From contig NW_019218225.1 in assembly GCF_002571385.2 (NCBI RefSeq), positions 52,384-116,383 on the forward strand: 64,000 bases of DNA. Direction: 5' to 3'. Under the pieces are notes generated by a model that worked only from the letters and a program-made list of their open reading frames with translations, was not told where the DNA came from and did not search any database. The position numbers were made by a program, and so were the translations under genes. This stretch comes from Stylophora pistillata. Lineage: Eukaryota. Shown here in pieces: positions 141 through 32,735 of the stretch; position 1 is the stretch's first letter; every line of letters begins with the position of its first letter.

Positions 141-311
141 GATTCTTTTTTCAGGTCTGATTTTCGCTATTGCATAAATAGCGCTATCTACTGCGAGGAT
201 CGTACATCATACGTATTCTTCACATTATATCTACAACTCGCTCTTACGCATGCGCGCAATTTACGAGTTAAAAAGGATGAAGTAAAAAATGAAATGTTCA
301 TTTAAGCTTAC

Positions 312-2232
312 ATTTTTTCCAAACTCTCCTTTTCTTTCTTCATTTCATCTTTCAGGATAGCAATTCTGAAGAAAATAAGCAAAAGATATTTTCTCATGTT
401 GTTGACCACTTTTGAGGCCGTGCAGGCATGTACCAACAAAAAGAAATAAACTGAATTGTGCAAAAAAAAAAAAAAAAGAAAGAAACTGAATTTAGTGTCA
501 AGAGCCTGTTTTTCGTTGTTTGTTTTATCATTATCAAATAAAAGCACTTTGTCACGCAGCTGTTAAAATTATGCCAATCTCTGCATGATTTCTAATTTCA
601 GATCTAGTAATCCATCAATGCATTCTGTTTTTCTTTCCAAGTTGCGTGACGTCGCGGCTTCATATATAAAATCAAACTTGAGTTGGTTGAACGACGAAAG
701 ATACTTTTAAACGTAGCAGTAGCATTTTATAGCAACTTTTGCATCTTAAATTAACTTGCACGAGTTATCAAGATTATTCTGACTTGCATTTTAAATAGCA
801 TGCTTACCTTTCTTCTTTTTCCGCCAGTTGGTCCTTTAAATTAACCAAATCTCCATATTTTCTTTTCGCGAGAATGTCTTTCTCATATTCCCTATTAAAA
901 AAATTCTTCGCTCATTGATTCTACTTTTTTTTTCATTTGCTTTCAGACTCTTACCTGGTCACCACTTTCAACCTGTTTTGAATTAGATTTAATAACCGAC
1001 CTGGCAGATCTTTATTCTCATTTCGCCATACAGTGAATTACTCGTACAAATCTAACACAAAAACAGTACAAATAGCTACCAAGCACTAGAAAAGGTAATA
1101 ACATCAATCAACGTAACTATCAGAGCCTTTGTTCTTCCAAACTAATTCCTGACAAGCCTTACGGTCTGTTTCCACAACTCAAAACTAACTATACTTAGTT
1201 CAAACAGTCTGAGTAACTCACGTAAAACAGCTGGAAGAGCAATTGGGAGATCTCTACCGTAAAGGTTCAAAATAGCCAATTCGAGAAACATGCAGACTGT
1301 AACGTTTGCCAGCTTAGGGAGGCCTTGATTTCTAGTATTAAACGTGGACTGCAATTCAAGTTTTGATTTAAACTCATAAGTTATTCTTGGTTGTTCAAAT
1401 TTTATTCCGAAATTTTGCTATATTTTGGGTTTTCCGGATGCCTTTGAATGTCCATCGATGTTCTGGTTCCTCTGGCTCCTCCGATGAGTTCACAAGATGC
1501 CAGAAACTATTGTTTCTTTACCAGTTCTCCGATGACTGAGAGGAAAATTCCTATCTAAACAGTACCTGGGCCAAATTTTGAACCTAGGAAGACCCAATTT
1601 TAACATGATTACTCAGATTGAGCCGATCGCTGCCAGATGAGGCACTCGAGGCGATCCGGGCCATCATAATTATGGAAATTAAGCATAGGCACAAAGTAGA
1701 CCCCAATCGTACTCTTCTTTACCGTTGGAGACGTTAGTTTAAGTTGAGCTTGGTTTTTCGCAACGACAATCGGGGCGCTGATATGGAATCCTGTGAGGGG
1801 GCTGAAATAATCGTTAAATAGCCACCTATAGAAACTAACCTCAAACTCGACTAATTGACAGTATAAATTCTCAAACACAATATCCACAACCTCTGATGTT
1901 TTGATCACCGCAGGTTTTTGGAAACTGAATTATAGGTATCATTATTTGTCCATTGGGTTATTCTTAAATCGTGGTATCTGCAAATTTACAGTCAGAGCTT
2001 TAAAGATAAATGAGCATGAGAAACCCACATACCTGAATAAGTCAAAATTACCATTGTCATGAGGCTCCTTTGGCATATTTGTTTGCGCGGTTATTAACCT
2101 TTTGCACATTTCTGGTAACGCTGGCAAAACCTTTTGATGTTCATGGAGAACGCCAAAAAGAGACTGTAGAAATTTTAACTCACAGTCGCTCATCTCTCCT
2201 GAATCCTCAAACTCACTTTGTGTGGCTGACAT
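312..2232 (-). CDS. Coiled-coil protein, 5' part only (continues off the left edge); probable paralog of the MIEAP-like gene at 25842-32293
   Basis: Exons 2232-2033, 972-955, 891-808 and 365-312 all have GT-AG boundaries and phase-2 junctions. They join into one open frame: MSATQSEFEDSGEMSDCELKFLQSLFG...LPEMCKRL...DLFR-LKVVTR-EYEKDILAKRKYGDLVNLKDQLAEKEER-IAILKDEMKKEKESLEK. The gene is divergent from HSPA12 copy 1. Confidence 0.7.
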
Positions 2233-2813
2233 TTTCCGTATTTCACTGATGAAATAATCTTATTCGCACTCGTAAGTTGGTCATAAACCAAAGACAGACA
2301 ATTGTACACAACTGAAAGGCTCGTAATATTTGATTTATGATTCCGGGAAAAAGCGGAAATATGTCACGTGGTATGGTTTTGATTAGCAAAAGTAGGTCAA
2401 ATAAACAACCCGCGACCTTTCAGTTTCTGAGAAAATTATTTGCATAATTACTACTGGTCTGTCGATGATTAAGCAGAAATATTTCCACTCACCGAATTGT
2501 AACTTGCTAATCATTGGGAATTTTGATATTCACCAACATTGATTCACGATGACTAGACTCTGTAGCGGTTAAAGCACTCGATCACAACAGATGTTTGCCT
2601 AGTTGACAAAATTTATGAAGAGACATGACGTCATCTTTCCGAGAAAGAGTAAAAATACACGGCAAAGAGATTTGAACTTTCGGTTTCCGGGAATTAAGCA
2701 AAAGAAAGATTTCACCAAGCTGATGCCGCATTCTTTTCACTGATTTTGAGGTATTAGTCTAAATATACACATTTTTGAAGAAATCGAAACACGACTCACA
2801 ATCAGGATCTAGT
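2233..2813. promoter_or_regulatory. Putative bidirectional promoter A with STAT/GAS, ETS, IRF and CRE motifs
   Basis: GAS TTCN3GAA at 2341, 2425, 2637 and 2685. ETS-like GCGGAAAT plus TGTCACGTG at 2353-2370. CRE TGACGTCA at 2626. ISRE-like ACTTTCGGTTTC at 2676-2687 overlaps the last GAS. GAAATCGAAAC at 2780. Confidence 0.6.
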
Positions 2814-5800
2814 ATGGAACAAAGTTTTGATGGTAAGTTAGTGATATTTTAAATACCAGTGAAAAGCGAAGCTTGTTATCCATTTGAAAATCTCCATCAA
2901 TATCATTTCCTTTCATGCTAAGTCGATGTTATTCAGAGTGTTAAGTTTCTCATATGGCTGTAAATCGTTTTAAGTTCTTATTTAAGCTCCCAGAACCAAA
3001 ACTACCCAATCTTTCATTGTAACTAATAACAACACTTGCCGGAATTAAACAGGAGGTCTTCGCCACCGAAGGCTGAATTTTTTTGTTCTGCTTTTCTTTT
3101 AAGACATGCGGGAGGATGGCGATCTGTTTCTTTCTCAAAGCACGACATACATTGGAATAGTTGCAATCGACTTTGGCACAACCTTCAGTGGTTTTGCATT
3201 CGCCTTCAACTACAAAGAAGGCGAGAAAGGTATCCATATGAACAAAGAATGGGGAGCGGATCAAGGGTGTCCTACACTCAAGACACCAACCTGCCTTTTG
3301 CTTAATCCAGACAAGAGTTTCAATTCGTTTGGCTATGAAGCACAAGACAGGTTTGCTGAGTTAGAAGAAGAGGAAGCAAGGGAGTACTATTATTTTGAGA
3401 GGTTCAAGATGACTCTTCATCACAACGAGGTAAGTTTATCGACCTTTGGCTCCGAAATGATCATAGTCAATCATAACTACTGAACTATGACTAAATGTTT
3501 CAAGAAGTGAGCTTTTTTACAAGAGCAGGTAACCGTCAACAACAATAACATTGATACAATTTATTTCATCATTTTCGTGGTTCTTCCCACAACAGTGAAG
3601 CCAACTGATAGAGGCTTAAATGGACTTTGGTCAGCAAAGGAATAATAAAAGACAGTCTGTGACTACATGTGCCTTCTGTTGTATTACGGTTGTAGAATAT
3701 CGCAGTAAAAAAAGCAACGTGGTTGAAAATTTCTTTTGAATTGACATTCTTCCTCAAAGGACGTATTATTTTTGCTCAGGGAAAACACGTACGTTTGAAA
3801 GCATTTGACGACATAGCTTTTACGTTCAAATCGATAACGATATCGAAATGCAAAGATGAAACCCTGAAAAAATCATCGAACTATACTTGAAAAAAAAGAA
3901 AAATGAATCTGAAGAAATCTGATCAAATTCGTTCGACGATGAACTCAGGACGAGTCACGATGGTCCGCCATTTTGAAAGCCGCGAGGGGCTTGGGGAAAG
4001 TTTCTGGACTTACACAACATCTAAACATTAGTAGGTACAAAAAGAGAAATATTTACATATGAGAAAAAATAAGACTAAAAAGTAAACTGCAAGCACAATA
4101 TATGGTAAGAAAACTTAATTTAAAACCGTAAAACAAATTATTTAGTCCACTGAGTATAAACAAAGTAACAAGCAAGACGATAACAAAGAAATGATAATGC
4201 TAATTATCACATTAATATGAAAATAAGTGAAATGTTCGCAGCGCAAAGTAATCATACTCATAGGTTTGAGATAATTTCGGTTGTGGCTTCAAAGACACAT
4301 AGAGGATGACTCGTGGTTCTTTTTAAAGTTATTGATTGTCAGGCCGTTACGTATGAGCAGAGGTACATCGCAGTTCCAGATAGAGGGAAGCTTGATAAGG
4401 AATTTTAAATTGATACCTATGATAAGTTTTAAGTCTTCTTTCTCCTGGATATTTCTGTATAAAGTCATTCATTAATGTATTTTTTAGGCCGGTTGGTTTA
4501 TAACAGTTGTTCCTTACAAATTCTAAAATATCGATTGTTTTGGAACAGCAATTAAACTTCAACAGCACTCTGGAGGCCAGCAATGGGAGAAACATGAAGG
4601 CTCTGGAAATCTTTTCGCATTCAATACATTACCTCCACACAAGGGCTCTTGAAGTTATTAGAGAGAGGACTGGTGATGAACATTTTACATCCCGTGACAT
4701 TCAGTGGGTCTTGACAGTCCCGGCAATCTGGAAGCCAGCTGCGAAACAGTTTATGAGAGAAGCAGCTTATCAGGTAGGCAGTCCTCGAGGTATCTTACTC
4801 AGTTTTATTTTTAAAACAAAATATAATCTGAATAAAATAAAAATGCTTTCTCTTTGGCCATCGTAGCTTGATAAGAAATAGCACACAAACCGCAGTTACA
4901 AACATGACAGTAAAACGCATGTTGGAAAATAAGATTAGTAAACTTTACTTGACGTTTCGTATGTTTCGACAAACATCTTCAGAAGTGACAGTTAAAAATA
5001 CACGTGGCGACTGAGTTTAAATTTAAGATGAGTAACTAATTAACATAACAATGAACAAAAGAAAAAAAATTTTCATATACAAAGATGCAAACTAATACAG
5101 ATAAAGCTTATCACTGCTGACATTATCGTTTAGAGTAGCTGTAAGCTCTTGAATTAATAGTCTCTTTTATCTTGCAATGAATAAAATCTTGCAATGAATA
5201 AAATAACATGTGTTTTCCTTTTGTCATGATATAAGATCTCTTTTACATCATCAAAAATTCAAAACTCCAGTTGTGAAAATTTGCAACCATATACAATGAA
5301 TCATTTTTTCAAAGAAAATTTCTGTTACTTCATCTTGTAACAACCTTTCTCTTCTCCAATTTGCATAAATGAATATCTACAAAGTGTGGTCTCAATTTGA
5401 CGCTAAATATGCACAGATATTTTCCCCGGAGATTACCTGGTCCGATAATCGAACAGTTTTCCAAGAGCGAAGCTCCAGGAAAAGTGTAAGTTATGGGGTC
5501 CAAGGCCAAAGATCTGTGCAAATTTTCGCACCAGGCTTGCGTGTTAACTATCCTTTAAAGTACATATGACACGAAATTTTTTGTCTTGTTTCTTGTAGTT
5601 GGATATCTACATAAAACGTTTCGAAGCTTTAAAAGGGCTGGAAAATGTAAAAAGTATTTTTTTTGCTTTCAAAATACGCGCAATTTGCCTTCAAATTTGT
5701 CCCGGAGACTGGAACCTAGTTTATCGCCGTCTAAGTTATTCGTAACGTCACATTGTGTACCTTTGCCGCGAAGGTCTGTTGTCGCTAAGAGGATTCTGCA

Positions 5801-8667
5801 GTACTTCGTAGTAGATATATAGTGTATTGAAAGGCAAAGATGTCCAGTAATTCTAATGGTTCCTTTGAGTCCGACTCTTCTGAAAGTTCCATTGACTTCG
5901 AAGAATTCTGCGCACACAATGTGACGTCACGTTACGATATCATGTGCGATTTTGGCCGCGCGATGATCGGAACAAATTTGAAGGCAAATTGCGCGTATTT
6001 GGAAAGCGAAAAAAATGATTTTTAAATTATGCAGCGTTTCTAAGGCTTCGAAACGTTTTCTATAGATATCCAACTACAAGAAACAAGACAAAAAAATTTC
6101 GTGTCCTATGCACTTTAAATATTTTTTGACGAGCTGTGCGAAATGTTTACGAAGGGCTTCTTGTTACCGTAAAGGATGTTCACTTTCACTGTTCTCGAAA
6201 TTTTAGTGCAATTGGATACAAAAGTATAACAATAGCCGTTAAAATGTATGTCTATTTCTTTTTTATAGTTTTCAACTTTCAAAGTCTGAAGTAATGTTTG
6301 ATCTGAGGTGGCTCGTTCATCACCTTTGAGATGAAAAAAGAGAAGGCGCACATATATAGTTATATGTTTAATGTATTTTTCACCAGGCAGGTGTAGGCTC
6401 TCATTCTAACCCAGAGCAGGTAGTAATTGCCTTGGAGCCGGAGGCTGCTTCCGTTTACTGCAGAGAACGAAAGATGAGGGACTTTGTTTCAGAGAGTGGG
6501 AGCAACGAAGCGTCAGTGTCTGATACTATCGCCCACACTGATGTGAAGTACGTGGTTGTAGACATTGGAGGTGAATACCTAAACAATATGTAAGAAATAT
6601 ACAAAGGGAACAGGTTTAAAGAAAATATCGTCTGAAAATAATTTTAAACAACTGCGCAAGTTATCAATAGAAAACAGCTCACAAAATTGGTCTCAAGCAT
6701 CGGTTGACAAAAATTATATCCCTTGGAAAGCAGAATTTCCGCTATTGTTTATAATTAAGGACCATCACTGATTTGGGAATGAAGCTGAGTTTTCCCAAAG
6801 TTATGAAACACCGCGTAAAACGGCGTGATGAAAACGAAAGAAAAATTACCGCGGGAAATATTATAAACAATTATTGGATTCGGTTTTTGTGATATCCGGA
6901 ATAATCGGCTGGTAATATTAACCGAGACCTTTATTATTCCGGATATCACAAAAACCGAATCCAATAATTGTTTTATCATACATTGTTTTAAAGAAAATAA
7001 CGCTAAACGCATTATCGCAGCGAACGCAGTTTATTTTCGAACACTTAAAAGTGTACAACTGTGTGGTAAACAAATTTTCACTTAGGCCAACTCCTTTTTG
7101 TCGTGTGGCTCCTGGATATTTTTCTCTTTAAGGTATTCGTAGAACAGTTCCTTCGCCACTTTTGTCTATCTTTTAGTATTTTCCGAATCTTTATCTTCAA
7201 GTAATTTCTCAATTTCTCGCTGGGTCGATGAAGCGAATAGAGAAGCCATTCTTACTTCACTGTCCTTGAACTTGACATTGCTCCACCGGATATCATGCAT
7301 TGCGCGCACAACCTACAGATTATTCACTAATCTGTAGGTACAGATTAGTGAATAATCTGTAGGTTGCGCAGTTTCCCAGAACTAACTGTGGGCGTTTAGC
7401 CAATGAGAAGAAAGATGGTGACCACAATGTATAATAATTATTTTAATTTCATTGTTTTAGTTCGTTAGGTGGAGCTATCTCACTCTTCCCCTCACCACCA
7501 CCACCCCCCCCTCTCCTCCCTCTTTATGCATCCTTCAAGAATTTCCCCCTTGTTATCCTTACTAGTTTCTTATTAGTATTTATATTTCTAGGAGGAACCA
7601 TGGATGTCACAGTACATCAAATTCAAATGAACGGGACGATCAGAGAGCTTCACAAAGCAACCGGAGGTCCTCACGGTGGAGACAAAGTTAATGAACAATT
7701 CAGGGCCCTTTTGGAGTCGATTTTTAGTGAAAAATTTATTAAGAAATATTCCCAAAATAATCCCGTTGATTGGCTTTGTCTCATGAATGATTTCGAAGTA
7801 AAGAAACGTGGAAAACGAGCCTGTGAAGGAGGCACAACGAGAATTCGGTTGCCAGCAAGTTTTGTGAGTAAATTTTCCAGTGATAAAGGCTGGGATATTA
7901 ATTCAGTTATCGAACAACGTTACAGCTCGTCGGAAATCAAAGTTCAGCGGAACGAATTTCTCTGCCTTGACCCACAAATTATGAGACAACTATTCGAGCC
8001 CGTCCTCAATGGAATTATCACTCACCTCTCCAACCTGTTCGCAAGAGAGGAATTGTCTGAAGTTAAATTTGTCTTCCTTGTTGGTGGATTTGCTGATTCG
8101 CCGCTGCTCCAGGAGAGGGTCAAGAAGCATTTCTACAAAAGCTATCAAATTATGGTACCGCAGAACGCATCTCTTGCTGTTGTCCAAGGTGCGGTGATGT
8201 TTGGGCAAAAACCACACATATTTGAATCCAGAATAATGACTTCGACTTACGGCATCCGTATACACAGATTGTTCCTTGACGGGCTGCACCCTGAATCAAA
8301 GAAGGAGATCGTTAACGGAATCCCACGCTGTAAAGATGTCTTCTTCAAGTTTGTCAAAGTCAACGAAGTCGTCAAAGTTGGAGAAAGACGTAGATTCGCA
8401 GGCTTTGCTCCTTTGACAGGGACGGAAAAGCAAATCAAAATTGATTTCTATCAATCGGATCGAGCCGATGCGGAGTTTGTTACAGATTCCGGCGTGGAAA
8501 AGACACCTGGCAGAGGATTGGTGCTCGAGACGCCCGAAGCTTGGAAAACTAAAGACATCGAGATCAATTTGTATTTTGGTGGAACGGAAATGAAGGTCAC
8601 AGTGGTAAACCTCACGAGTAATAGACAATCAACAGTCTGCCTAGACTTTTTGGCAATCAATCAGTAA
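2814..8667 (+). CDS. HSPA12: Heat shock 70 kDa protein 12-like (atypical Hsp70), copy 1, ~609 aa
   Basis: Exons 2814-2832, 3104-3429, 4549-4773, 6387-6570 and 7592-8667 (GT-AG, phases 1,0,0,1). Motifs VAIDFGTTFSG, KTPTCLL, WVLTVPAIW, ALEPEAA, DIGGGTMD, LVGGFADS and YFGGTE. The protein ends in LDF-type residues with no EEVD. Confidence 0.93.
4900..5205 (-). mobile_element. Penelope-like element 3' remnant
   Basis: The minus strand encodes a frameshifted GIY-YIG C-terminus (HCKIKET..IQELTATLNDNVSSDKL). A hammerhead-like CTGAAGA...GAAACGTC lies at ~4950-4985. Confidence 0.55.
5559..6114. mobile_element. Non-autonomous DNA transposon, Kolobok-like
   Basis: TTAA flanks at 5555-5558 and 6115-6118, AG...CT termini, and ~140-bp imperfect TIRs. 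Located in intron 3 of HSPA12 copy 1. Confidence 0.8.
6864..7437. repeat. Hairpin-headed interspersed repeat
   Basis: Inverted repeat AAACAATTATTGGATTCGGTTTTTGTGATATCCGGAATAA at 6865-6903 versus 6933-6973. A second palindrome lies at 7308-7366, and a CCAAT-containing end follows. Confidence 0.6.
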
Positions 8668-10559: not shown

Positions 10560-10961
10560 TGAAACCGGAAGTTGGAAGTAATTCGAATAAGTTCTCATAC
10601 CTCTTAGAAACGTGCTTGCATGATGTGAAGTAAACAGCATACGGGAAACTTTCGTTACCAATCAATGAAGAGTGACGACTGTTATTTTCACTTGGGCTCA
10701 AATGCTTTTCTGAGAAATCGGGGAAACTTACGTCAACTTGACCCTAAACTGCATTAGCCAATAAGAGACGTTTTTCAATTTTAAGATCAAGGTTTCTCTT
10801 TCTGAGAAACAGCTCCCTGTCGTAGGGAAATTTCCTTTAGCAAGCTTAACACTTTCTGTTGAAAGGGATATTTTCAAAGATTTTCGTTCAGATTACGAAA
10901 GAGGCGACAAAAACGTTTTATACGCACAGCGACTTTGAGAACGAAGAGTGAAGCAACCTAG
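10560..10961 (+). promoter_or_regulatory. Putative promoter of HSPA12 copy 2 with ETS, GAS, ISRE and NF-kB motifs
   Basis: ACCGGAAGT at 10564. TTCTGAGAA at 10708 and 10800. GGTTTCTCTTTC at 10791-10802 overlaps the second GAS. TTACGTCA at 10728. GGGAAATTTCC at 10825-10835. Confidence 0.55.
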
Positions 10962-13900
10962 ATGGCATACAAAGGTAACGTTTTAGGTACGTAACAATGA
11001 AGATTTATGTTACTCATTCAGTTTGATCTCTCGCCTTTCCGCTTGTGTTCGAGGAGAGCCAAAATTCTTGGTCCTAAATCAAGTAAATAGAGTGCCTCAA
11101 CTCTAGTTATGATCTCAACAGTACAAAGAAACCGGCAATGGTCTTAATGTTTAAGACTAACTAAATTTCTTAGTTAACAATTATTCCCGAAGTGGAGGTG
11201 TATAGTGATGGATATTTACCGTGCCGCGAAGCGGCGAGGTAAATATCCACCACTTTCGCCGACACTGAGGTGAGTAATTGTTTTAGTATGTACCACACAG
11301 TGACCAAAAAATTTGTTTGTTTCCATCAACATTCCAAAATATGGCCAGAAATTAAATTTTCAACGTGCGATTTTGTCTCTTCGGCTACTCGGAAGTAAAG
11401 TACTTGCAAAGTACTTCCGAAGAGGCCAATCAGCACGTGGAAAAAAGCATTATTCACCCGTGTGGTATATTACAAATCACAAATCGACACTGGTTTACCG
11501 TTGTCCGTGCTTTGCCGTGGCCATCATCGAGGCCAACTTGTTGTAAACTCACGAGGCGCAGTCGTGTGAGTCCGCAACAAATTTTGACCATAGTGATGAC
11601 GAATATTGTTGTCAATAAGACTACAGACCACGCTACACCATTGTCGATTTGCTTTTTACCACAACGTTGACGTTAAAGTTCCGAAAAATTTCCGAGTCAT
11701 CCATGTTTGGAGCTGATAAAGGAATTGCGTGACACGCTGATTCGAGCAGCGTTGTCTGTACTATTGCCGACGACGGAAAATTGACCAATCAGACTGCGAC
11801 ATATCTGCCAGTTGTGGTAAAAATACTAATAAAGGATATGTTAGGAGAAACACAGAACACCTTAAAAGTCTTTTTCTAGCTCGTGCAACATTTTTAATGA
11901 AGAACTTCCTTTTGCGAAAGGAAGATACCAAATGAAATGGCGGGCAATAGAGGTGTTTGTGCAGTAAATGGTTTGAACCCGGGGGTAACATGTGAAGGTG
12001 TAGTCTGATCGTCCGGGTGAGTGTAGTCCTGAGAAGGACTGTTGTCGGTGGTAGTGACTGACGTTTCGACAACCTGTGCGGAAGTCATCATCAGAGTCAA
12101 GTGAATGATTGTTGTCAGTAGAATGTTCTTATTCCAGTTCGTGTGAAATGATCGGTTGGTTTTGCCGTGATGTTATTGGCTGTAAGACTCAAGTGACGTA
12201 AGTCGGTCGTGATTGGTCTGTTTCGATCTGTCGGTAAAGTTAGGTCGTTCTTTTTCGGTCGTTTGTGATGTTTATGTCGTGAATGAGTCGTTTGTATGGA
12301 GCGGGTAGTTGTTGACATCTGTTTAGGGGAGTCTGTTCTAAGTTAGTAAACCAGCTTTCCAGAGTCAGTCGTTGAAAATAGTCAGTGCTGTAGGTTAGGC
12401 ATTGCGCAGAGTCCCAGTCAATGTTGTGGTTGGTAAGTCGATGGTGTTCAGCAATGTGATTGCTGACATCACCTTTCCTCGTCGCCCGTCTGTGTTCAGT
12501 CAGTCTTGTTGTGAGGTTTCTGCCAGTCTCACCGATGTAGGAGGCTTGGCAGTCGGAACAATTGATCTTATAAATCGTTCCCTGTCTGTTCCTCGGTTCG
12601 TCTTTGTCTTTAACGTTGGTTAGTAACTGACGTAGTGTGGTGATGGGTTTGTGGGCGACGCCAATAACATCACGGCAAAACCAACCGATCATTTCACACG
12701 AACTGGAATAAGAACATTCTACTGACAACAATCATTCACTTGACTCTGATAATGACTTCCGCACAGGTTGTCGAAACGTCAGTCACTACCACCGACAACA
12801 GTCCTTCTCAGGACTACACTCACCCGGACGATCAGACTACACCTTCACAGAGGTGTTTGTGCGTCTAATCACTTTTCATGTTTCGGTTTACCTTCTCAGC
12901 GAGCTCATTTCATTACATGCTTGTTTCGTGAATTTCGTAATTATGGCGATCAACCAAGAAGCAACTGTGGATTGTGCAATGTAGATTTTAAGTAATGTGT
13001 ACCGCTAGGTTACTGACTTGGTTAAAAATTCAAGCGTCCGGGGTCATAATTTTTGCACATTTAAAGACAATCTCAAAAGAGTCTTTGGCAGTATTTAATG
13101 TATAGATATGCACTGAGTATCGTAATTCGATTAACTCGTAATTCGATGTTTCTTAAGCCTAAAGAGATATGTATTTTGTTTATCTATCACAGCACTTGAA
13201 GGCTCGCTTCTCTATTCTCCGAAGCGTTCGTATCTGGCAGTTGTTGCCATTGACTTCGGGACAACCTATAGTGGATTTGCCTTTTCATTTATCAAAGACC
13301 AAGGAAAGGACGCCATTTTCATGAATATGGACTGGGGTAATGAACAAGGCGCTCAAACAAGCAAAACACCAACATGCCTGCTACTCAAACCAGACTTGGA
13401 GTTTGACTCCTTTGGTTATGAAGCAATAGAGAAGTATTCCAGTCTTGGAGATGAGAGCGAAGAGAAAGAGTATCTATTTTTTAAACATTTCAAAATGGCC
13501 CTTCACAGTGACGAGGTCAGTGATTTAACTTCGTGTCAAACTATGTGAATCGCATAATTTGGAAGGCGAAATTTTCCAGAACACTCTGAACCTTTCGTCT
13601 TTGCGTCTGAAGCCTTTAAAGCTGATAAAACTAAGATGAACTGTATATGATTATTAGCATACATTTCTTCCTCTGCACCCAGTTTCTAAAGACTGTAGAT
13701 TGAAAGCCAAACCTGTTAGCCCACGTTTTGGGTAAGTTTTTCTTAAAAGATCACCACTCTCAAAGTGGGCAAATATTAATTCCAACCTCGATGCAGATCT
13801 TTCATTCAATTCACAGTTCCTATCTTGTCATCTTACATCTCAGATTACTTAAAACTGCGGATTATTTTTTAATTTTTGAATATTGCAATTGTTCTCCACG

Positions 13901-16900
13901 ATGATCATTAACACCTAACAATCAAGAACTTTAATATTTATTGTTGGATAGTTGTTTGTCATGATCTATAATTAACTCGAATGGCCGGCAAACATGTTGC
14001 ACAGACTAAGGTCTAATGCTATTTTATAAAAGACCTGTAGAAACGTGCTTTACTTGAATACTCATGCTTGTTTTCAGACTTTGAATAGCAGGACTGTCAT
14101 AAGGGCAGCCAATGGACGATCCGTCGAAGCCAAGACAGTGTTTGCACGTTCCATTAACTTCCTTAAAGATGAAGCTGTTAAAGTAATTCGTCAGAGAACC
14201 GGAGATAACCATTTCAACGCAGATGAAATCCAATGGGTCCTGACTGTACCTGCCATATGGACCCCGAGAGCAAAGCAGTTTATGCGGGAGGCAGCCTATG
14301 AGGTAATTTTCGATTCTTGCACGCCCATTTCTTTATAGGTCGTTCTGACCAAATGAGCCTGCCATCTGCATCCTTATAATTGCCGAAGAAAATATCCAAT
14401 ATATTATCTGATTTCATGAAGTTGGTCATGAATCATAATAATGATCCTCAATTCAAGGCATTCCTTCAAATTAATTGTTTTTATCCACTGAGTTAATAAC
14501 GAAAATTTGCCATCGTAAAGAGTTTTTAAGCTGATCTTCCGAGAGTTAGCCTTTAGTAAGCTGATAAATGCAAATTATTTTTTCTCGAAAAGTGAGAGGG
14601 CGGTATTCTACAAATCCTTCAACTTAATTGGTTCCGAGAGTGGGCTTCGTTATAAACTAAATGTTTTTGTTTTCCCGGCTGGGCAGGAATAATAAGTCGA
14701 TAAAGAACTTATCTAAAATTGAATTCGAAATGAGTTTTGTTACACCAAATGTGTTTGTTAGGGACCTTAAGCAGTCAGGGCAGCACCGCCGAGGAAGCCG
14801 TCGAATGAAAAATGTATTGATAATTTAGGAGCGTGTCCACGAGAAAACCAGGCAGGGACCGATAACCTCAAATCACCGATTTGGCTCAAACTTGGCGAAA
14901 ATGCTAAGTATTATGAGTTAACGAATGTGTGAAAATAACAGGTCAAAATATCTAATTCTCTGGGACTAAGGTCCCCCTGAGAAAGCCCCCATTTCCTGCA
15001 TTTTTTGCATAATTAATTAGCTAACTTTGCATTGCTGCTATGACAAACAGAAAATTCGTCTACAAATTCAATGAACTGGGTTGTGTTCTATATCTATCAG
15101 ACTTCACTGAAGAAAATTGAATTGTTTTAAATTTTTCATTTCATTTCTTCCCTTACCTCTCGTAAAGACGTTAGAAAAGACGACTTTTTCTAGTTTTGAC
15201 AAAGTCCAACATAAGGGTATTTTAAGGCCCAATATCTCCGATGACCAACTACTTCTGATCATTATTCCTATATGGGTAGTGAAAGCCATCACTGGACTTT
15301 CAAAATCAGAAATAAAATGTTGGGGCAATTGATTTCATAACCCGTCCTGACGTGAAATTTACATCTACCTTCCGCTTTTTTACTGGTCTGTATCATCAAA
15401 ATTCCGTAAACCACATCTTTGTTTCATTAACTTAAAATAACTTGTAATTTACGAGAAATTTCCCAGAGAGTATCGTTTAAACATGAACGAGGAGAGAATC
15501 TTTGAATAGCGCAAGCTGAGCCCTTTTTGAGAACTTTTTTTCGCAGCCATATTTGGATTATTCAATATGCAAGTGATTTCTATATACGTGTCAGGTTCTC
15601 AACCATTTTCTTTTTCCTTGCGCTGAGAGGAGACCAATATATCAACGGCTTATTTGTTTTTCGGTGAACCAGCAACTATTTCAAGCTTAACAAATAACAA
15701 GTCAAACATTTTGGTAGCCGTAAATCTTTGATACATTTTAAACTTTGTAGACTACAAACACAACACGCCAAATAAATGTCAAAGTTGATCACTGAACAAA
15801 ATTGTAGGCGCGATCTGATCAAAGATGGCGGATTGTCCTTTTGATTTACATCAGCTTTTAGGACATCAAATTATCTTTTCGCCACCAACACATATCATGT
15901 AAGTCGATAAGTATCACGCCGTAAAAGACCAATAATTTTTATCAGTCTTTCCGAGAGCTCTCCCCTTGTTCAATATTTCAACAGGGCAACGATGCAAATT
16001 GAATCTGGTGATTGTTGACATAATGGCTACTTATCTAACAAATGATATCAAGCCAAAACTTGAAACTGAGGCACCACAGACATGTATGTACTACCAAGTT
16101 TCTTCCTAGATTTCTTTTGTCAGAAAGTTCAACTACATGCGTCGTTGATGTTCATCATCAACTGCTGCGTCTTCTTAAGAATAATCCAAATATGGCTGCG
16201 AAAAAAAGTTCTCAAAAAGGGCTCAGCTTGCGCTATTCAAAGATTCTCTCCTCGTTCATGTTTAAACGATGACTCTCTGGGAAATTTCTCGTAAATTTCA
16301 AGTTAGTTTAAGTTAATAAAACAAATATGTGGTTCACGGAATTTTGATGATACAGACCAGTAAAAAGCAGAAGGTAGATGTAAATTTCACGTCAGGACGG
16401 GTTATGAAATCAATTGCCCCAACATTTTATTTCTGATTTTGAAAGTCCAGTGATGGCTTTCACTACCCATATAGGAATAATGATCAGAAGTAGTTGGTCA
16501 TCGGAGATATTGGGCCTTAAAATACCCTTATTTTGGACTTTGTCAAAACCAGAAAAAGTCGTCTTTACTTAAGTCTTTACGAGAGGCTAGGGAAGAAATG
16601 AAATGAAAAATTTAAAACAATTCAATTTTCTTCAGGGAAGTCTGATGCATATAGAACACAACCCAGTTCATTGAATTTGCAGAGGGATTTTCTGTTTGTC
16701 ACAGCAGCAATGCAAAGTTAGCTAATTGATTATGCAAAAAATGCAGAAAATGGAGGTTTTCCCAGGGGGACCCTATATCTCCCAGGGAATTAAATATTTT
16801 GACCTATTATTTTCAAAAATTTGTCAACTCAAGATACTTAGCAATTGTGCCAGGTTTGAGCCAAATCGGTGATTTGAGGTTTATCACCCCTGCCCGTTTC

Positions 16901-19900
16901 TGCCCAGTTTTTCTCGTGGACACGCTCTTAAGACAGAATTTCGCGTATGACGCCACACCTCAATTTTAGCATAGTACAGGTGAGCTGCGCTTACTTCCAA
17001 AAGGAAACTGGAATAATTTACTTGAACGATAAGTTCAGGGAAGAAGGAAAAGTCATGGTGATAGTTATTTAACTCTGGTTTACTCGACGAACCAGAGCTG
17101 TTGTTTTTTTCTGTTTGTTTCTTTCTTTAGAAGTGTACGCGTGCTTCTTTTTTTTTCTTACGCGCTGGTGTCAGATCAGTGCAGACACTAAGAAAAAAAA
17201 TGTTTCAAATTTCGCTCGAAAGTCTTTTCAGTCACCCTTAAAAAACGTTTTGATGAAGCCTCTATTTAATTTGCATTACCGCTGTTTCTCTACCATCAAC
17301 TCGGTCAGAAAATGTCCCGTATATGGAGGATCTTCCCGAAATTACAGCCCTAAATCATTTGGGTTCTTTTGGAAAGCATTTCGTCAAGTCTTAAGTCTTG
17401 AGAGCCGGCATCCAAGACCTCGGGCGCAGTTTTTCCCAATACGGACCTCCCGCCGGGTGAATAACATCCGTATTTATTTTAAGTTGAGGCCGCGGTGATT
17501 GTGGACTGGACGAATGGAACTTTGGACCGTTGGACTGTTTTCGGTCTGGTTTTTTGACCATTCTCTGAACCAGTTTTCCCCTTATAATACACCTTTAACT
17601 ACACGAATATCATCCGACGCTTCTTGTCGGAAGAGGTTAAGATATTGCACCTTTTTCCATGTTTATATCTTTTCTTTTGTTACTTTAAAAGGCTGGTGTT
17701 GGGAAACCAGAAAATGCTGATCAATTAATTATTGCTTTGGAACCAGAAGCAGCGGCAATTTTCTGCATGGAGAAAAATATGAGTGATTTTCTAGAAGAAT
17801 CTGGCTGCAGATCTGTTGATGGAGTGCTATCCAAAATCAACACACATTACATTGTTGCTGATATTGGAGGCGAGTTGAAGAATTAATCCTGTAAGAGTTT
17901 GACTTAGTTGCTAATAAAAAAATCGTTTGCCAAGTTCTGCCCGAAACCAAACGCTTAGCTTTTTAATTTCCCTTTAAAAGAGATGCATTTTGTTGAGATA
18001 AGATCATTTCTTTTCGAAACTCCAGCTCTCTCGATTTCTGAAAGCGAAAATACTTTTAACTTGACCGGCCTCGTGAAGATGTACAAACATGTAGCTCAAA
18101 ACGTTTATAGTGAGAAGGGTGATATTGTGTAATCTGGGCACGCATCAATAAAATTTGCGACCAAGGTCGCTAGACTCCATAAGACGTGAAAAAATATAAT
18201 GGCTTTCCGTACAATTCAAGGTCGCTCTTCTTGTGACAACAGAAAATCAAATTTCACACCATTTTTTATTTCAAAATAAATCTGTTAAGCTTATTTTGGA
18301 TTAGGTTCGTCTTGAGGGGAATCGAAGGATGACTTCTCAAATATCTTGTTTTGCTGTTGAAATCTATTACGTGGTCCTTAATGATCCTAAAGGGGGGTTA
18401 AATACGTACCCTTGATTAAAAAAAAGCTACACAGAGAGCTTTTAAAGTCACAAATACAAGTTGCACCTCTGTTCAACAACCCATTACTTCATCTGTTGGA
18501 AGAGCGGCGAAACAACATGAAATAGTATTAGCTTTGCCTTGCGATTCGTTTGGATCAACATATTATTTCTTAGGGAAAGTGATTCAACCGAGAACTATGT
18601 TAAGGAGAAAGAAAAATTGACTGCTTAGGGATAAAGATTCGATCACTCAGATTTTCATAGACCAGGTAATTACTCCTATTTTGAATACACAGGCCAAGCA
18701 ACAAGTGAAGTGAACAAAGGTGGTCTTTGTTTAGGTTGATTCTGATAGTTATTATCTTTGTTTCTCATGGCACCCAAAAAAATCTAAAATAGCAAGGTGC
18801 AAAGAATAAAAACAAAATCTTGAAATTATAAGGATTAAAAACCAAAATTTAAGAACCTTATGGTGGTGGTAGTAACAGTCGTAGTTTTACTTCTAATGGT
18901 AGTGAGAATAGAAGAGTAAAGAGAAGAAGGGGAGCAACTGTAAAAGATTTAAAAATAGGATTAATCATAATCATAGTTGATTCTTGCTTATTTTATTTTT
19001 CAGGAGGGACACTTGATGTAACAGTGCATGAGATTCAAGATGACGGTAGAATTAGGGAGATCTACAAAGTCACCGGAGGTCCTCACGGTGGAATGTATGT
19101 AAACCAGAAGTTTGAAAGTCTATTGGACGAGTTGTTTGGTACCCCAATGCTTCAAAGCTATAGAGAGCAATTTCCATCTGATTGGCTCTGCTTGATAAAT
19201 GAGTTCGAAGGGAAAAAACGAGGAAAACGTGTACTTGACAGCAGCTTGATGACAAATATTCGATTACCGAGAAGCTTCGTATCGCAGATTAAACGAAACA
19301 GAGGGACAGGAATCGACCGCTATGGAGAGAGAGAAGTCAAGATAAAAAGTAACGAATATCTTTCCCTAAGCTCTGGGATGATGAGGAAATTATTCACCCC
19401 TGTTGTGGACAAAATCAAGGAACATTTGAATAACCTGTTGCAAAAGCCAGAGCTATCAAAAGTACAAATAATGCTCCTTGTTGGCGGCTTTGCTGAGTCG
19501 GCATTCCTCCAAGAGGAAATAAGAAAGGAGTTTTCCGGAAGGAACAGAATCCTCGTCCCCCACCACGCCAGCATTGCAGTTGCCCAGGGCGCCGTAATCT
19601 TTGGCAAGAAGCCTACCACAATAACCGAGAGGGTTATGGGTACTACGTATGGCATTCGTTGCTTAGGTGACTTTGAATCGGGCGTGCATCCGGAAGAGAA
19701 GAAAACAATCAGAGACGGCATTTTTAAGTGCAGAGATTTATTTAGCTGCTTTGTTAAAGAAAATGAAGTTGTAGAACTTGGACAGCGAATCAAAAAAATC
19801 TATCACCCTTCTAAATCCACCTCAACAAGGGTCACCGTTGCCTTTCACGTGACGACTAATCCAAATACTCAGTTTACCACAGATCCTGAGGTAACTAAGA

Positions 19901-20061
19901 TTGGGAACATCAGTATTCAGACCCCTGACACCTGGAAAGGCAGAGACCGAGATATTGAAGTTTGCATGTATTTTGGTGGAACAGAAATAACTGCCACAGC
20001 CTGGGACGTATCCAGTGGGAATAATGCACAAACTAACCTGGACTTTTTCAGTCGATCATAG
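10962..20061 (+). CDS. HSPA12: Heat shock 70 kDa protein 12-like, copy 2, ~598 aa
   Basis: Exons 10962-10974, 13193-13515, 14078-14302, 17692-17869 and 19004-20061. Intron positions and phases match copy 1, and intron 4 has a GC donor. Motifs VAIDFGTTYSG, TVPAIW, LEPEAAA, DIGGGTLD and GGFAES. Confidence 0.92.
11177..11823. repeat. Composite hairpin-headed interspersed repeats
   Basis: Hairpin around TGGATATTTACC-GTGCCGCGAAGCGGCGA-GGTAAATATCCA (11209-11250). A second hairpin, ACTCACGA..TCGTGTGAGT (~11547-11570), follows. A degenerate copy of the first unit lies at ~51895-52190. Confidence 0.55.
11963..12848 (-). mobile_element. 5'-truncated Penelope-like element with GIY-YIG endonuclease fragment and inverted pseudo-LTRs
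   Basis: 14-bp TSD AGAGGTGTTTGTGC at 11949-11962 and 12849-12862. The ORF contains GTIYKINCSDCQASYIGETGRNLTTRLTEH...LESWF. A ~189-bp near-perfect inverted repeat spans 11992-12180 and 12660-12848. Confidence 0.92.
12052..12100 (-). ncRNA. Minimal type I hammerhead ribozyme in Penelope pseudo-LTR
   Basis: The minus strand reads TGACT-CTGATGA-TGACTTCCGCACAGGTTGTC-GAAAC-GTC-AGTCA. This gives an intact CUGANGA/GAAA core, stem I TGACT/AGTCA and a GUC cleavage triplet. Confidence 0.65.
14829..16927. mobile_element. Non-autonomous long-TIR DNA transposon, Sola3-like
   Basis: GAG...CTC termini, TTAG/TTAA flanks and ~730-bp highly similar TIRs (14829-~15562 versus ~16179-16927). Located in intron 3 of HSPA12 copy 2. 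Confidence 0.8.
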
Positions 20062-25841: not shown

Positions 25842-28800
25842 TTATAGCAACAACACTTCCCCTTTCCTGATAACTTTTCCATCGCAGTCTAACAAAGTAG
25901 GCCACAAATAGCACTTGATTTTGCGTGACCCTGAGTACAGTGCTCGACGAGAAGGGCTCCTTTCTTCGGAGGGACTAAACGCTTGACTCACTTCGTGGAC
26001 TTTTGGGTCATAGTCAGTGGTCTTGTAGTCAATTCTCAGAGGAGGAACCTGTGTAATAGTACACCATGCAAACTGCGTGCAATATTTAATATAGCCATTC
26101 AGTCTATACAAGAGATCCAAGTCGAATTCAAGGAGAAAAGATCCCCTTTGCAACTGATGACGAGTCCATTTTTCAGAAATAGATCTTTTCACGTCCTGCA
26201 AATGAACGGAACGAACAAACATGATTATATTTTTGTGGGGAGCTTAAAGAGGTTTAAGAAGGGACTTACCGACAAGTTAATGACTACGAGAAAATCACTA
26301 GTTAATCACTACAAGAAAAAAATTAATGACCTAACTAAAATTAAACTAAAACGTTTATGGATGACAAAGCAAAATCAATCCAGAATTTCCACTTTTTAAA
26401 TATTCACTTTCGACGGTATTTGTTAAGACAGTAAACAATCATTAGTCTGTTTTCAACTTGTTTCTTAATTTGTTGTGAATTTGATATGATTTTATCAGTC
26501 ATAACAAATAACTGGAAAATTGCAAAGAAAAGGTAGAAGGGTATTCAGATACTGTTGAGCTTAAAGAACCAATTAAGAACAAATAAAGAGCATTGAATCT
26601 ACCTGAACAAGTGAATTCAAATCGTGTGTCTTCGCTCTTTCTTTGACGAGAATCATCAACTCATTGATCACATCCTGAGTGGCATGCACATCGCCTTTTG
26701 GATTGTTATACAGCGTGTTCCAAAGCTAGCCAATGAAATATGAATATCTGTCACCGATGTAAGTGTAAGTTTCCCTCCACCAATACAATTACTAGCGGAG
26801 GGCAAAAAAACTGCCCTTCAGTGGTTTGAAAACGCTTCCTGCTCGATATTGGCCAAGTTGCGATAGACGAAATATCCATCTTCTTTATTTCGTACGCAAG
26901 TGGAGTGCTTTCCACTCAAAGGGAATACAAACTCTAACCTCCTTCAGAACTAAGCACTACTTTATTCAAATAACCAGGATTTTCACGGTTATCATACTCC
27001 TCGGATGTTGGGAAGGGACACACGAAGGGTGTGTCAAGAATAGACCACATTGCCTCCACCATCTCTACTCCGAAGTTGTCGCAAACTTGTATGGAAGCCT
27101 CAAAATCCACTAAGTAAACAGACTTGGTTGTCCTATCGATCTAGGTTAAAAAAGCCCACTTCGATAAAAAAAAAAGCAACTTGAAATTCCTTTATAAGTC
27201 CATCACTACAAAAATTAATGACTAACAAACCGTACTTTGCTTTGGAACGATGTCGTATCTGACCCCAACGCAGGAGCCTCAGCGGCCAATGTTTCCATTA
27301 CACTGGATGTGAATTTGACGAAGGACTCTTTCACCCTGAGAACAACTTCAAAGGCTACCTAGATCCGGAGAGGAAGACATATTTATTAGAAACTTTCTGA
27401 ATACTGTTTCACGTTTTACTAAGTTTGGTGAGCAATGTTAAAGACAAAATTGGCATTTAGCAAGAATTTTCATTAAATGTGTTGTTAAACTTATTTAAAT
27501 GTAAAGAACATAAGTGGAAATAATATATTACTACAAGCTATTCAGCACAAAAATTATAATAAACAAAGTTGCGGTTGTGAATTTGACATGAAAGCAGATG
27601 TTCAGTTTATCGGTTATCTCCTGGTTAGCTATGTCAAATCCACGATCAAGAAAATACTTCTAACTATTTTAATAAAAGACTTTGATAGTAAATTTTATTT
27701 TAGCACGTTCAGCATCTCTTTCTTTAAGGTGACCTTAAGTGTAAACAACTTGTACTTTTCATCTTCCGTACTGAATTTATAATCAATTGACTCGTGTTAA
27801 CAACACGTAGTTTTTTCTGGGGGTGGTACTTGTGTAAGCCCCTTCTTCCTTGAATCCGCTGTTTATTCAGTTGTTATGTAACAAACTTCAAGGGCTACTC
27901 TCGTTTTAGTTATCTTTTTAAGTGCTATTCTGATCTACGCAATGGCTTCTTCATAATTTTAATATTGCCAATCTTGTTTTCGTTTTACCATAACTAAACT
28001 GGAAATGTAAGAAATTTAAGGTAGAAAATGATTTTGTAATTGCGTAAATGACTCGAAGGTACATACCTAGTATGCATGAGCTATTTCACGCAACTTAACG
28101 TGATTCGCTAGTTAAGATAGAAACGATGACGATGCATGAAAATTGGCAGCTTAGTAAGTGTCACCTTTATAACTTGGTGAACAAAAATTTTCACTCAGAG
28201 TTGAGCTAGTCCCGATAGTAGTAAATTGTATTAAGGTTACCGTGCACCTTCAGGGGTGTCTCGCGTGCAAGCGATGTAGCGCGTCCGGTTTAAACTGTAG
28301 ATATCTAAACTCTTATATCAAATTAAAGCTTATAGGATTGGCTATCAGACTATACAAAAAATTGTGAAAAAAATGAATTGTCGAAATTTTCACGACTTCT
28401 AAATGCGAGCGCCCAAATTACCTTTTGAACGTTACGTGTCAAAGCGAATTTTGTTTTTCGCTTATTTAATGTGTTCCTCCGTTTCCGGGGCCAAAGCGAT
28501 AATTAGCGATAACGTATTAAATTTCAGTGAAAAGTTACGGAACATTTTTCAAATAGGATTAAAAAAATGTGGAGTGATCGTACAAAAATCGCTCTTGAAA
28601 AAAAAGTATTTAGAAATAAAAAATTCGGAGACACTCTTTTGTTGTTTAAATGTAAAACTAGCTACTGTCAAAATTTGAGAGCAATCGAACAAATTCCGTT
28701 TGACTTGTTGCCCTTAAAAGGTGATTCGGGCGCTCGCATTTAGAAGTAGTGAAAACTTCGACAATTAATTTTTTTTAAACTTTTTGGTATGGTCAGTTCT

Positions 28801-31800: not shown

Positions 31801-32293
31801 TTTTGTTGACAGTTATTCGCTGTTTAGTGACTCATCCGTTGGATAGCGTTATCCGCCCTTCAGGTACCTTCACTTAAATCCCAGCAAATGACAGGAAACG
31901 GTGGAATTTCGTTTGTTTGCTTACGGAGTCTACTCGTGCAAGATCAACGTTGTTCAGTCGAAAGTGTCCTGTGTTTTATCACGGTTCTATCCAAGTTATG
32001 AGTATAAGTAAAAAATTGCTTCCAATTCAGACCCTGCATCGGCCAAAGGGAGGTATAAGACGATAAACAGAGGGTATTTATTATACTGTTTACCTTGAAC
32101 GCGACGCTTCATTCGCTTCCTTCTTTAGTCTCTCGTTCTCACTTTGGAGTCGTCTGAGCTCCTCAGGAAGCTTTATTAAATTCTGGATGAACTCTTGGTT
32201 GGTAGCGAGTGGTTCCACTTCATTCGTGAACTCCGGTGATTCTCTCTGAGTTCCATACCATGCACTTGTCGGCCATCTGCTCCGTCCGGCCAT
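25842..32293 (-). CDS. Coiled-coil plus MIEAP/SPATA18-like domain protein, ~469 aa, with GrpE-like C-terminus
   Basis: Exons 32293-32094, 31566-31471, 31279-31181, 30741-30640, 30283-30203, 29507-29276, 27358-27236, 26725-26603 and 26195-25842. All are GT-AG and sum to a 1410-nt open frame. MIEAP-type motifs are ENTLSTNRQSQLESDY...RVDA, YIKYCTQFAWCTITQVPPL, YDPKVH, YLWPTL and GKVIRKGEV. Confidence 0.85.
28235..28899. mobile_element. Non-autonomous DNA transposon (MITE), Kolobok-like
   Basis: TTAA TSD at 28231 and 28900, GG...CC termini, and TIRs of ~180 bp whose outer ~78 bp are perfect. Confidence 0.85.
29010..29160 (+). repeat. Hammerhead/Penelope-related short repeat family, degenerate copy
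   Basis: Ends in CCCACC.AC.CAGCACCACAGTTTCTTTAGAAACT, shared with 41287-41330 and 58884-58925. Confidence 0.6.
29571..29940 (-). mobile_element. tRNA-derived SINE
   Basis: The minus strand begins GACCGCCTCCCGGTTAGCTCAATGG...GGTTCGAGCCCC (A and B boxes), continues through a body, and ends in a (TAAAA)n tail at 29571-29598. Confidence 0.75.
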
Positions 32294-32735
32294 GTTATCA
32301 TTCCAGGAGTACAAATTTAACGAGATGTTCCTAGAAAAAAGTTGCTTCCGCTCTTGCTATTTCCTTTCGCGGAAAACCGGAAGTTGTCACGCTTGTAAAT
32401 GACACAATCTCTAAGTTTTTATTCAAGTTTGCCTTGTTGAAAGGTCGAGTTCAGTGAGCATGAAAATGAAGTTTGTGAGAAAAAACTACAAAGAGAGAGA
32501 GAAAGAAAAAACTTTAAAATGTAAACAATCAAACTATGTTCACCAATATCTCAATTGGATAACCCCCTATTGTTTAGAAAAACACGATTCCTCTTTTGAC
32601 CCTCTATAGGTCAGTTTGATTTCCGGGAAATTTCCCCTCGATTTTGACGAAATAACATTGAATTGGTGCGATCGCACACAATTTGCTTTCGCGTTCAAAG
32701 TAGAAGTCTTTATTCAAGGGAGATATCGGAACGCC
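32294..32735. promoter_or_regulatory. Putative bidirectional promoter B with STAT/GAS, ETS and NF-kB motifs
   Basis: TTCCTAGAA at 32328. TTCGCGGAA at 32366, then ACCGGAAGT at 32376 and TGTCACG at 32385. TTCCGGGAA at 32621 overlaps the perfect palindrome GGGAAATTTCCC at 32625-32636. Confidence 0.62.

Follow-up and report, generated by a model that had tools for sequence, protein, structure and literature searches.

What signal drives a pair of divergent coral genes, one of them named as a heat shock protein, when the 581 bp between their start codons are dense in STAT- and IRF-type motifs? The question is raised by a stretch of 64,000 nucleotides from the 398-Mb genome of Stylophora pistillata (G000:C441:52384-116383, hereafter the window), where the + strand encodes three HSPA12-like genes and the - strand two divergent ones. 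An initial annotation had described the intergenic region as a bidirectional promoter rich in STAT/IRF sites rather than heat-shock elements, and had concluded that these "heat shock" genes are induced by innate immune signals. The main features of the window are as follows:

311..2318, - strand: divergent partner gene A (LOC111340223), coding exons 2033-2232, 808-891 and ~311-365, running on left of the window; coiled coil, likely the 5' half of a long MIEAP-domain gene
2233..2813: bidirectional promoter A with both 5' UTRs, between the ATGs at 2232 (-) and 2814 (+)
within ~2319-2716: probable untranscribed core of promoter A
2814..8667, + strand: HSPA12-like gene A, 609 aa, actin-fold ATPase motifs, splice joints in RNA contigs; exons 2814-2832, 3104-3429, 4549-4773, 6387-6570 and 7592-8667
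10562..10835: promoter B, with an ETS site, two strict GAS, a CRE-like and an NF-kB-type site
10962..20061, + strand: HSPA12-like gene B (P0113)
25842..32293, - strand: MIEAP-domain gene C (P0122, 469 aa; LOC111340218)
32294..32735: bidirectional promoter C, with GAS, GAS-ETS and a fused GAS/NF-kB-type site
32736..38193, + strand: HSPA12-like gene C, first exon inferred from the sequence

No divergent partner gene was seen at promoter B. The model of HSPA12-like gene A, starting at the ATG at 2814, is identical to database protein P0166 from residue 8. Several mobile-element remnants lie in the window: a 750-bp inverted repeat of 92% identity (14825-15563 and 16179-16931) within an intron of gene B, probably a non-autonomous DNA transposon; a fragment of a GIY-YIG (Penelope-like) element between 190-bp inverted repeats in intron 1 of the same gene (11991-12849); and a highly transcribed tRNA-derived SINE-like repeat at 25-216, with tandem copies at G000:C408:116680-117900.

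Both genes flanking promoter A are transcribed. RNA contigs from runs X1 and X10 contain spliced forms of each, the + gene being covered through five exons and the splice path of the - gene leading from 2032 to 890 and on to 365, and the proposed bidirectional organisation is borne out: two divergent transcribed genes with 5' ends less than 1 kb apart. For the minus gene the contigs end at 2318 and for the plus gene at 2717, positions that both lie some 25 bases away from a GAS composite, although contig ends do not fix start sites. In a sample of raw RNA reads from runs X22 and X23 (roughly 2 in 100 reads per run), coverage of both genes was close to nil, a result compatible with low expression and with a divergent genotype. 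Introns 1 and 2 of HSPA12-like gene A (2833-3103 and 3430-4548) are covered by contigs alongside the spliced form in the RNA runs, reflecting intron retention or pre-mRNA.

GAS palindromes were scored in a loose form, TTCN3GAA, and a strict form, TTCYNRGAA. Promoter A has four, at 2341, 2425, 2637 and 2685, and all four are strict. The loose pattern is expected 0.40 times, and only 14 of 20,000 dinucleotide shuffles contain four or more, so that the initial claim of a count far above chance holds. The ISRE-like pattern GAAANNGAAA[CG] occurs at 2417, 2677 and 2780 (three or more in 5 of 20,000 shuffles). In the fused sites ISRE and GAS overlap, TTTC being common to both. The sites are arranged as follows:

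2341..2358: GAS (TTCCGGGAA) with an ETS-like site, adjoining the 5' end of the minus gene
2417..2433: fused ISRE/GAS 1
2626..2645: composite of a CRE (TGACGTCA, at 2626) and a GAS with a fixed 3-base gap
2677..2693: fused ISRE/GAS 2, adjoining the 5' end of the plus gene
2780..2790, + strand: ISRE-like GAAATCGAAAC, not conserved

The last of these probably lies in the 5' UTR, since RNA contigs extend to 2717 on the plus side. An E-box (CACGTG, 2364-2370) directly follows the GAS-ETS site inside a block conserved in metagenome locus L310. The fused ISRE/GAS at 2676-2693 and the CRE at 2626 read as the initial annotation had written them, but a second fused site (2417-2433), the GAS-ETS site and the CRE-GAS spacing had been overlooked.

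Promoter A contains no three-unit HSE (inverted nGAAn), as first noted, even with one mismatch allowed, which rules out a heat-shock-element reading; the same test detects perfect HSE arrays upstream of two of six canonical hsp70 loci. No NF-kB-type site was found in promoter A either.

The motif density was also set against 40 arbitrary 10-kb stretches (375,754 non-N bases) and stands out from them. Loose GAS occur there at 0.26 per 581 bp; since four are reached in 20 of 17,205 sliding windows, from two of the 40 stretches, the loose count by itself is uncommon but not without parallel. Strict GAS never exceed two in any background window, against four in promoter A, and the GAS-ETS and CRE-GAS composites have no occurrence in the 375,754 bases.

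Conservation singles out the same sites. The two paralogous promoters on contig C408 give no blastn alignment to promoter A, but the 14-mers that match at 12 or more positions all fall on the GAS-ETS, CRE-GAS and ISRE/GAS sites, one A-rich patch excepted; across the three A-type promoters compared, the GAS half-sites are kept and the spacer alone changes. A metagenome scan yielded 16 loci, seven of them close relatives (76-87% protein identity) and nine distant (36-43%). Four close A-type loci with just 0.3-1.4 kb of upstream sequence were left out of the promoter comparison. All three loci with at least 3 kb upstream carry the first exon of the partner head-to-head (33-38% identity), and their five non-coding blastn blocks, of 83-93% identity, all lie on motif sites, the chance of doing so being 0.28-0.36 for each of the three distinct blocks. 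The CRE-GAS composite is kept in both C408 A-type paralogues and in all three long metagenome loci, and the GAS-ETS site in the C408 paralogues and in L306, L309 and L310. Fused ISRE/GAS 1 is kept in L310; fused ISRE/GAS 2 is whole in C408:266115 and L306, reduced to its ISRE-like half in L309 and L310, and lost from the paralogue at C408:116 kb. The 2780 site has no counterpart in the C408 paralogues or the metagenome loci. The nine distant loci have one strict GAS between them and no partner. In these comparisons the motif sites are almost the only non-coding sequence kept in paralogues and in contigs that probably come from other corals.

Two features of the paralogous loci may be added. 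On C408, an A-type promoter is cut off from its HSPA12 exon by a tandem SINE-like array and a stray duplicated HSPA12 exon. Two otherwise diverged C-type promoters share an identical element (at 32621-32635 of the window and at G000:C408:74426) in which a GAS overlaps an NF-kB-type site.

The strict GAS is also characteristic of HSPA12 genes elsewhere in the genome. When the 3.5 kb upstream of 15 HSPA12 genes outside the window (50.8 kb) were compared with 381.7 kb of surrounding DNA, it was enriched 3.4-fold (25 against 55 sites; p 3e-6, a value that, like the others of this test, overstates the case since paralogous promoters are not independent samples), and ETS sites were enriched 5.8-fold. 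The enrichment depends on the 3-base spacer: GAS controls with 2- or 4-base spacers gave 1.0-fold and reversed patterns were likewise not enriched. Outside the window, ISRE, kB and CRE sites showed no significant enrichment upstream of HSPA12 genes (p 0.09, 0.17 and 0.83), and neither did HSE. At least one strict GAS is present in 16 of the 18 HSPA12 upstream regions examined, and of ten GAS-rich clusters identified in 442.6 kb, nine are situated immediately upstream of an HSPA12 gene, with three of these nine coming from the window in which the rule was drawn up. None of the six canonical hsp70 upstream regions has a strict GAS.

Among other gene families, upstream regions of IRF genes contain strict GAS in three and ISRE in two of five cases, and GBP-like loci show a weak GAS enrichment (6 against 2.4 expected) with no ISRE. 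The exact fused motif has 15 matches in the whole genome, against four for its reversed control: three in HSPA12 promoters, four in ORFs of Pao-type retroelements and eight elsewhere, of which three are at immune-type genes: one of apextrin-CUB type, one PARP14/DTX3L-like, and one for a GTPase whose matches are sub-threshold. This list gives mixed support to an immune reading. The PARP14/DTX3L-like gene (L055:4500-9900), with RRM, NID, KH, macro, RING and Deltex domains, has its fused ISRE/GAS and two further GAS between two duplicated exons. At the IRF locus L270, a CRE and a GAS abut in that order 211-194 bases upstream of the IRF domain, an arrangement resembling the composite of promoter A, and at L269 the GAS and ISRE core are the same as in the site at 2677-2693. 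The genome has five IRF matches; two exon-limited searches returned no STAT gene, a type of search that is uninformative on absence.

What, then, are the two genes that share promoter A? The product of HSPA12-like gene A has the ATPase motifs of the actin/Hsp70 fold and no match to the canonical substrate-binding domain. Its alignment with the Pfam HSP70 profile (E 3.9e-12) is confined to residues 154-450 of the protein and 128-380 of the profile, and it matches DnaK over 239-449. On the other side of promoter C, the divergent partner P0122 has a C-terminal MIEAP domain (PF16026) above the Pfam cut-off, a score attained by 64 of 114 homologues taken at E up to 1. Partner gene A is annotated as a 178-aa orphan, but the end of this model reads into a splice donor, and RNA contigs from four of four runs splice onward into a further exon. 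A search of the readable assembly did not locate the exon that follows its sixth coding exon, and no junction to a MIEAP exon was seen in the RNA contigs. Partner gene A is nonetheless likely to belong to the MIEAP family, because its N-terminus resembles that of the full-length 520-aa MIEAP protein P0188 (23% identity, E 3e-5), MIEAP exons lie further on along the same strand, and a C408 paralogue has the same long layout.

The association of the two families extends across the genome. With all counts to be read as lower bounds, the same seven of 5,513 contigs hold 18 of the 19 HSPA12 matches and 16 of the 18 matches to MIEAP genes, and for 12 to 13 of the 19 HSPA12 matches the nearest upstream match is a divergent MIEAP gene (12 clear pairs, and one among truncated duplicates). 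In the 12 pairs, which were assigned by position, HSPA12 and MIEAP identities co-vary (rho 0.86, Mantel p 1e-4), down to 18% for MIEAP and 39% for HSPA12. A divergent partner is missing at gene B and at several further HSPA12 copies. A literature search covering few subscription journals found no published account of the HSPA12-MIEAP pairing or of promoter A, nor any description of a partner gene or STAT/IRF promoter for HSPA12.

Two other pairs deserve mention. At G000:C274:338326-345428 (L061, L076, L095 and L114), an HSPA12 gene stands head-to-head with the MIEAP gene that scores highest in the genome (110.7 bits), with 5.76 kb between them and no strict GAS; the pair may be ancestral and non-immune, the nearest counterpart of vertebrate SPATA18 and HSPA12A/B. 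Between G000:C441:27449-35050, to the left of the window, and C408:107857-114689, the 3' MIEAP exons are 80-89% identical in DNA, introns included, and the neighbouring HSPA12 genes 72-77%. Since the MIEAP exons are the closer of the two, gene conversion or a swapping of partner halves between the contigs is suggested.

The MIEAP domain itself offers a possible link between the two proteins. Its resemblance to GrpE was noticed by eye ahead of any fold test. For a predicted model of the homologue P0175 (pLDDT 91.8), GrpE chains took ranks 1-3 of 48,161 (Z 7.7, 7.3 and 7.1), the next unrelated chain having Z 5.9; the top GrpE aligned end to end over 144 residues with an rmsd of 4.6, and in Foldseek the first row was GrpEL1 (E 0.15). 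With a model of the window's own last, C-terminal MIEAP exon (pLDDT 84.8), GrpE occupied rows 1-9 in Foldseek (E 0.78-1.7) and ranks 1, 2, 4 and 8 in VIA. The top structural matches were 1dkg, 9bls, 4ani and 3a6m. All these scores are middling (Z 5.4-7.7, Foldseek E 0.15-1.7), and relative to GrpE the MIEAP model has a large helical insertion.

Profile comparison points in the same direction. HHalign of MIEAP against 31 GrpE sequences aligned 52 columns of the head with scores of 31-33 and a probability of 37-55%, compared with at most 22 in 60 column shuffles. GrpE H154, R183 and V190 align with H (53 of 55 sequences), R/K (45 of 54) and V (52 of 54) in MIEAP; R183 of GrpE contacts DnaK. The invariant G177 of GrpE is replaced in MIEAP and the position of R186 is variable. 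Pfam GrpE (PF01025) is absent from the 25 families listed for 114 MIEAP members and was not obtained for P0122 or P0188. Sequence searches of solved structures with MIEAP gave no significant match, a viral structure library none with E up to 0.001, and the ESM Atlas yielded nothing beyond MIEAP or unnamed clusters. A MIEAP-GrpE relationship was not found in the literature searched, the one co-mention of both words concerning megamitochondria. As none of these scores is better than middling and no match to Pfam GrpE is attained, MIEAP is predicted from its modelled fold to work like GrpE rather than to be a member of that family.

The observed motifs with their conservation and enrichment, the two spliced genes and the genome-wide pairing and co-divergence can be accommodated in one account, which appears reasonably probable: promoter A would switch on, during innate immune activation and through STAT/IRF/ETS/CREB-type motifs without any HSE, both an HSPA12-type ATPase and a likely MIEAP protein acting as its predicted GrpE-like, dedicated nucleotide-exchange or targeting partner. 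Immune signalling would activate STAT, IRF, ETS and CREB/AP-1 factors, and coral STAT dimers may bind the GAS palindromes together with the IRF, ETS and CREB/AP-1 factors. Composites beside both 5' ends would cause ATPase and partner to be made together, and the symmetry of the sites could ensure matched amounts. If partner gene A does encode a C-terminal MIEAP domain, the beta-head of that domain might open the nucleotide cleft of HSPA12 as GrpE does for DnaK, while the variable coiled coil could select the target.

The immune reading of promoter A given by the initial annotation is probable on sequence grounds. Motif conservation, a GAS enrichment upstream of HSPA12 genes that is specific to the 3-base spacer, and the lack of such sites at canonical hsp70 genes speak for it; its description of both flanking genes as heat shock genes needs correction, since only one is Hsp70-like and the other is likely a MIEAP gene. 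Published data from cnidarians are partly concordant. In Acropora, an HSP12/ORP150-related gene is reported among those most strongly induced by MDP and poly I:C, within an hour, and according to PMC13319465 homologues of IRF2, FOS, ELF1, STAT5A and ELK1 are up-regulated in poly(I:C)-activated immune cells of Nematostella. PMC8713801 attributes a single STAT gene to Nematostella and no identifiable interferons to cnidarians; its supplement contains no HSPA12 or MIEAP names. The supplement of PMC8476169 has at least one HSPA12 row (log2 fold change -2.88, direction ambiguous), which is given no weight here, and that of PMC12530282, searched by gene name and accession, has no match for these genes.

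How do other explanations fare? That the motif cluster is a product of chance or of repeats in an AT-rich genome is hardly credible. Windows with four loose GAS do exist in two of the 40 background stretches, and the fused motif recurs in a retroelement family, but neither accounts for the strict-site count, the spacer-specific enrichment or the conservation against an unalignable background; moreover, self-comparison of the window reveals no repeat within 2233-2813. Enrichment and conservation appear already to have largely refuted such an origin. It is also rather improbable that functional sites respond here to a general programme of stress, wounding or cell type, with heat acting indirectly, instead of to pathogen sensing. 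On this view the sites would be bound by STAT in a developmental or stress role, or by a different protein recognising TTC-N3-GAA, for example a BCL6-like repressor. ISRE half-sites fused to GAS and conserved, together with NF-kB-type sites in promoters B and C, argue for pathogen sensing, as does the response of the Acropora gene to two microbial mimics. Promoter A itself has no NF-kB-type site, though NF-kB is the factor named as active in the cGAMP response in a section heading of PMC8713801, and in that source the cGAMP response of Nematostella is not blunted by knockdown of STAT or of single IRFs. Furthermore, PMC12530282 reports that heat stress activates antiviral genes in Stylophora and Nematostella, and immune genes in the former, so that the contrast between immune and heat induction is not a clean one.

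A third alternative accepts an immune-type promoter but takes HSPA12 and MIEAP as merely co-regulated neighbours, with MIEAP not acting on HSPA12 and its likeness to GrpE either a relic or a helix-plus-beta arrangement of a common sort. This seems unlikely, yet several results fit it: Z values stay under 8 and the Foldseek values are non-significant, MIEAP has its large helical insertion, tandem duplication of the unit would account for co-divergence without binding, and gene B and several other HSPA12 copies lack a divergent partner. Against this, the only family that the fold searches brought up is the known cofactor of the superfamily to which the neighbouring gene belongs, residues of the GrpE head are kept in MIEAP, and the pairing has lasted to 18% (MIEAP) and 39% (HSPA12) identity on seven contigs. 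A dedicated, predicted GrpE-like partner, probably induced together with the ATPase, is the reading retained here. A bolder extension is put forward tentatively, and with more doubt than belief: MIEAP-domain proteins may be an unrecognised, non-mitochondrial branch of GrpE and dedicated cofactors of HSPA12, an ancient two-gene module amplified in corals to give an effector family governed by a pre-interferon STAT/IRF code.

Since the Nematostella knockdowns were negative, STAT and IRF are no more than candidate drivers of the antiviral programme of animals without interferons, and promoter A provides a compact, conserved and mutable test object with two natural outputs. Where coral bleaching and disease transcriptomes contain matches to "heat shock 70 kDa protein 12A", these are likely signs of immune activation and not of heat-shock-factor activity. 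Through the pairing, the orphan HSPA12 chaperones gain a first candidate cofactor and the MIEAP domain a first candidate for a biochemical role. Were MIEAP indeed a GrpE branch and an HSPA12 cofactor, human SPATA18 and HSPA12A/B would have a shared mechanism; and a pre-interferon STAT/IRF code, if real, would provide a motif grammar with which cnidarian STAT targets could be looked for directly.

Several known systems invite comparison. GAS and ISRE composites also occur in the promoters of vertebrate interferon-stimulated genes, among them those of the head-to-head pairs TAP1/PSMB9 and PARP9/DTX3L. Promoter A resembles them in its palindromic TTC-N3-GAA and GAAANNGAAA sites near both 5' ends and in serving two genes, probably linked in function, from one bidirectional promoter; it differs in the overlap of ISRE and GAS and in the fixed spacing of its GAS-ETS and CRE-GAS sites. 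The gene pair recalls DnaK-GrpE and the mitochondrial HSPA9-GrpEL1 (Pfam PF00012 and PF01025), in that the gene for an Hsp70-fold ATPase is linked to that of a protein predicted to consist of a long helix, a helical bundle and a small beta head. However, HSPA12 matches HSP70 in the nucleotide-binding part only, MIEAP falls short of Pfam GrpE and has a helical insertion and long variable coiled coils, and the HSPA12-MIEAP genes are divergent, multi-copy and under an immune-type promoter. The coral ATPase genes are like HSPA12A/B in their ATPase motifs, their length of about 600 aa and their source names ("heat shock 70 kDa protein 12A-like"), but unlike that family they number at least 19 copies in Stylophora pistillata. 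Finally, MIEAP-domain gene C of the window resembles MIEAP / SPATA18 (PF16026), described as a mitochondrial quality-control protein, in its C-terminal domain, which scores above the Pfam cut-off.
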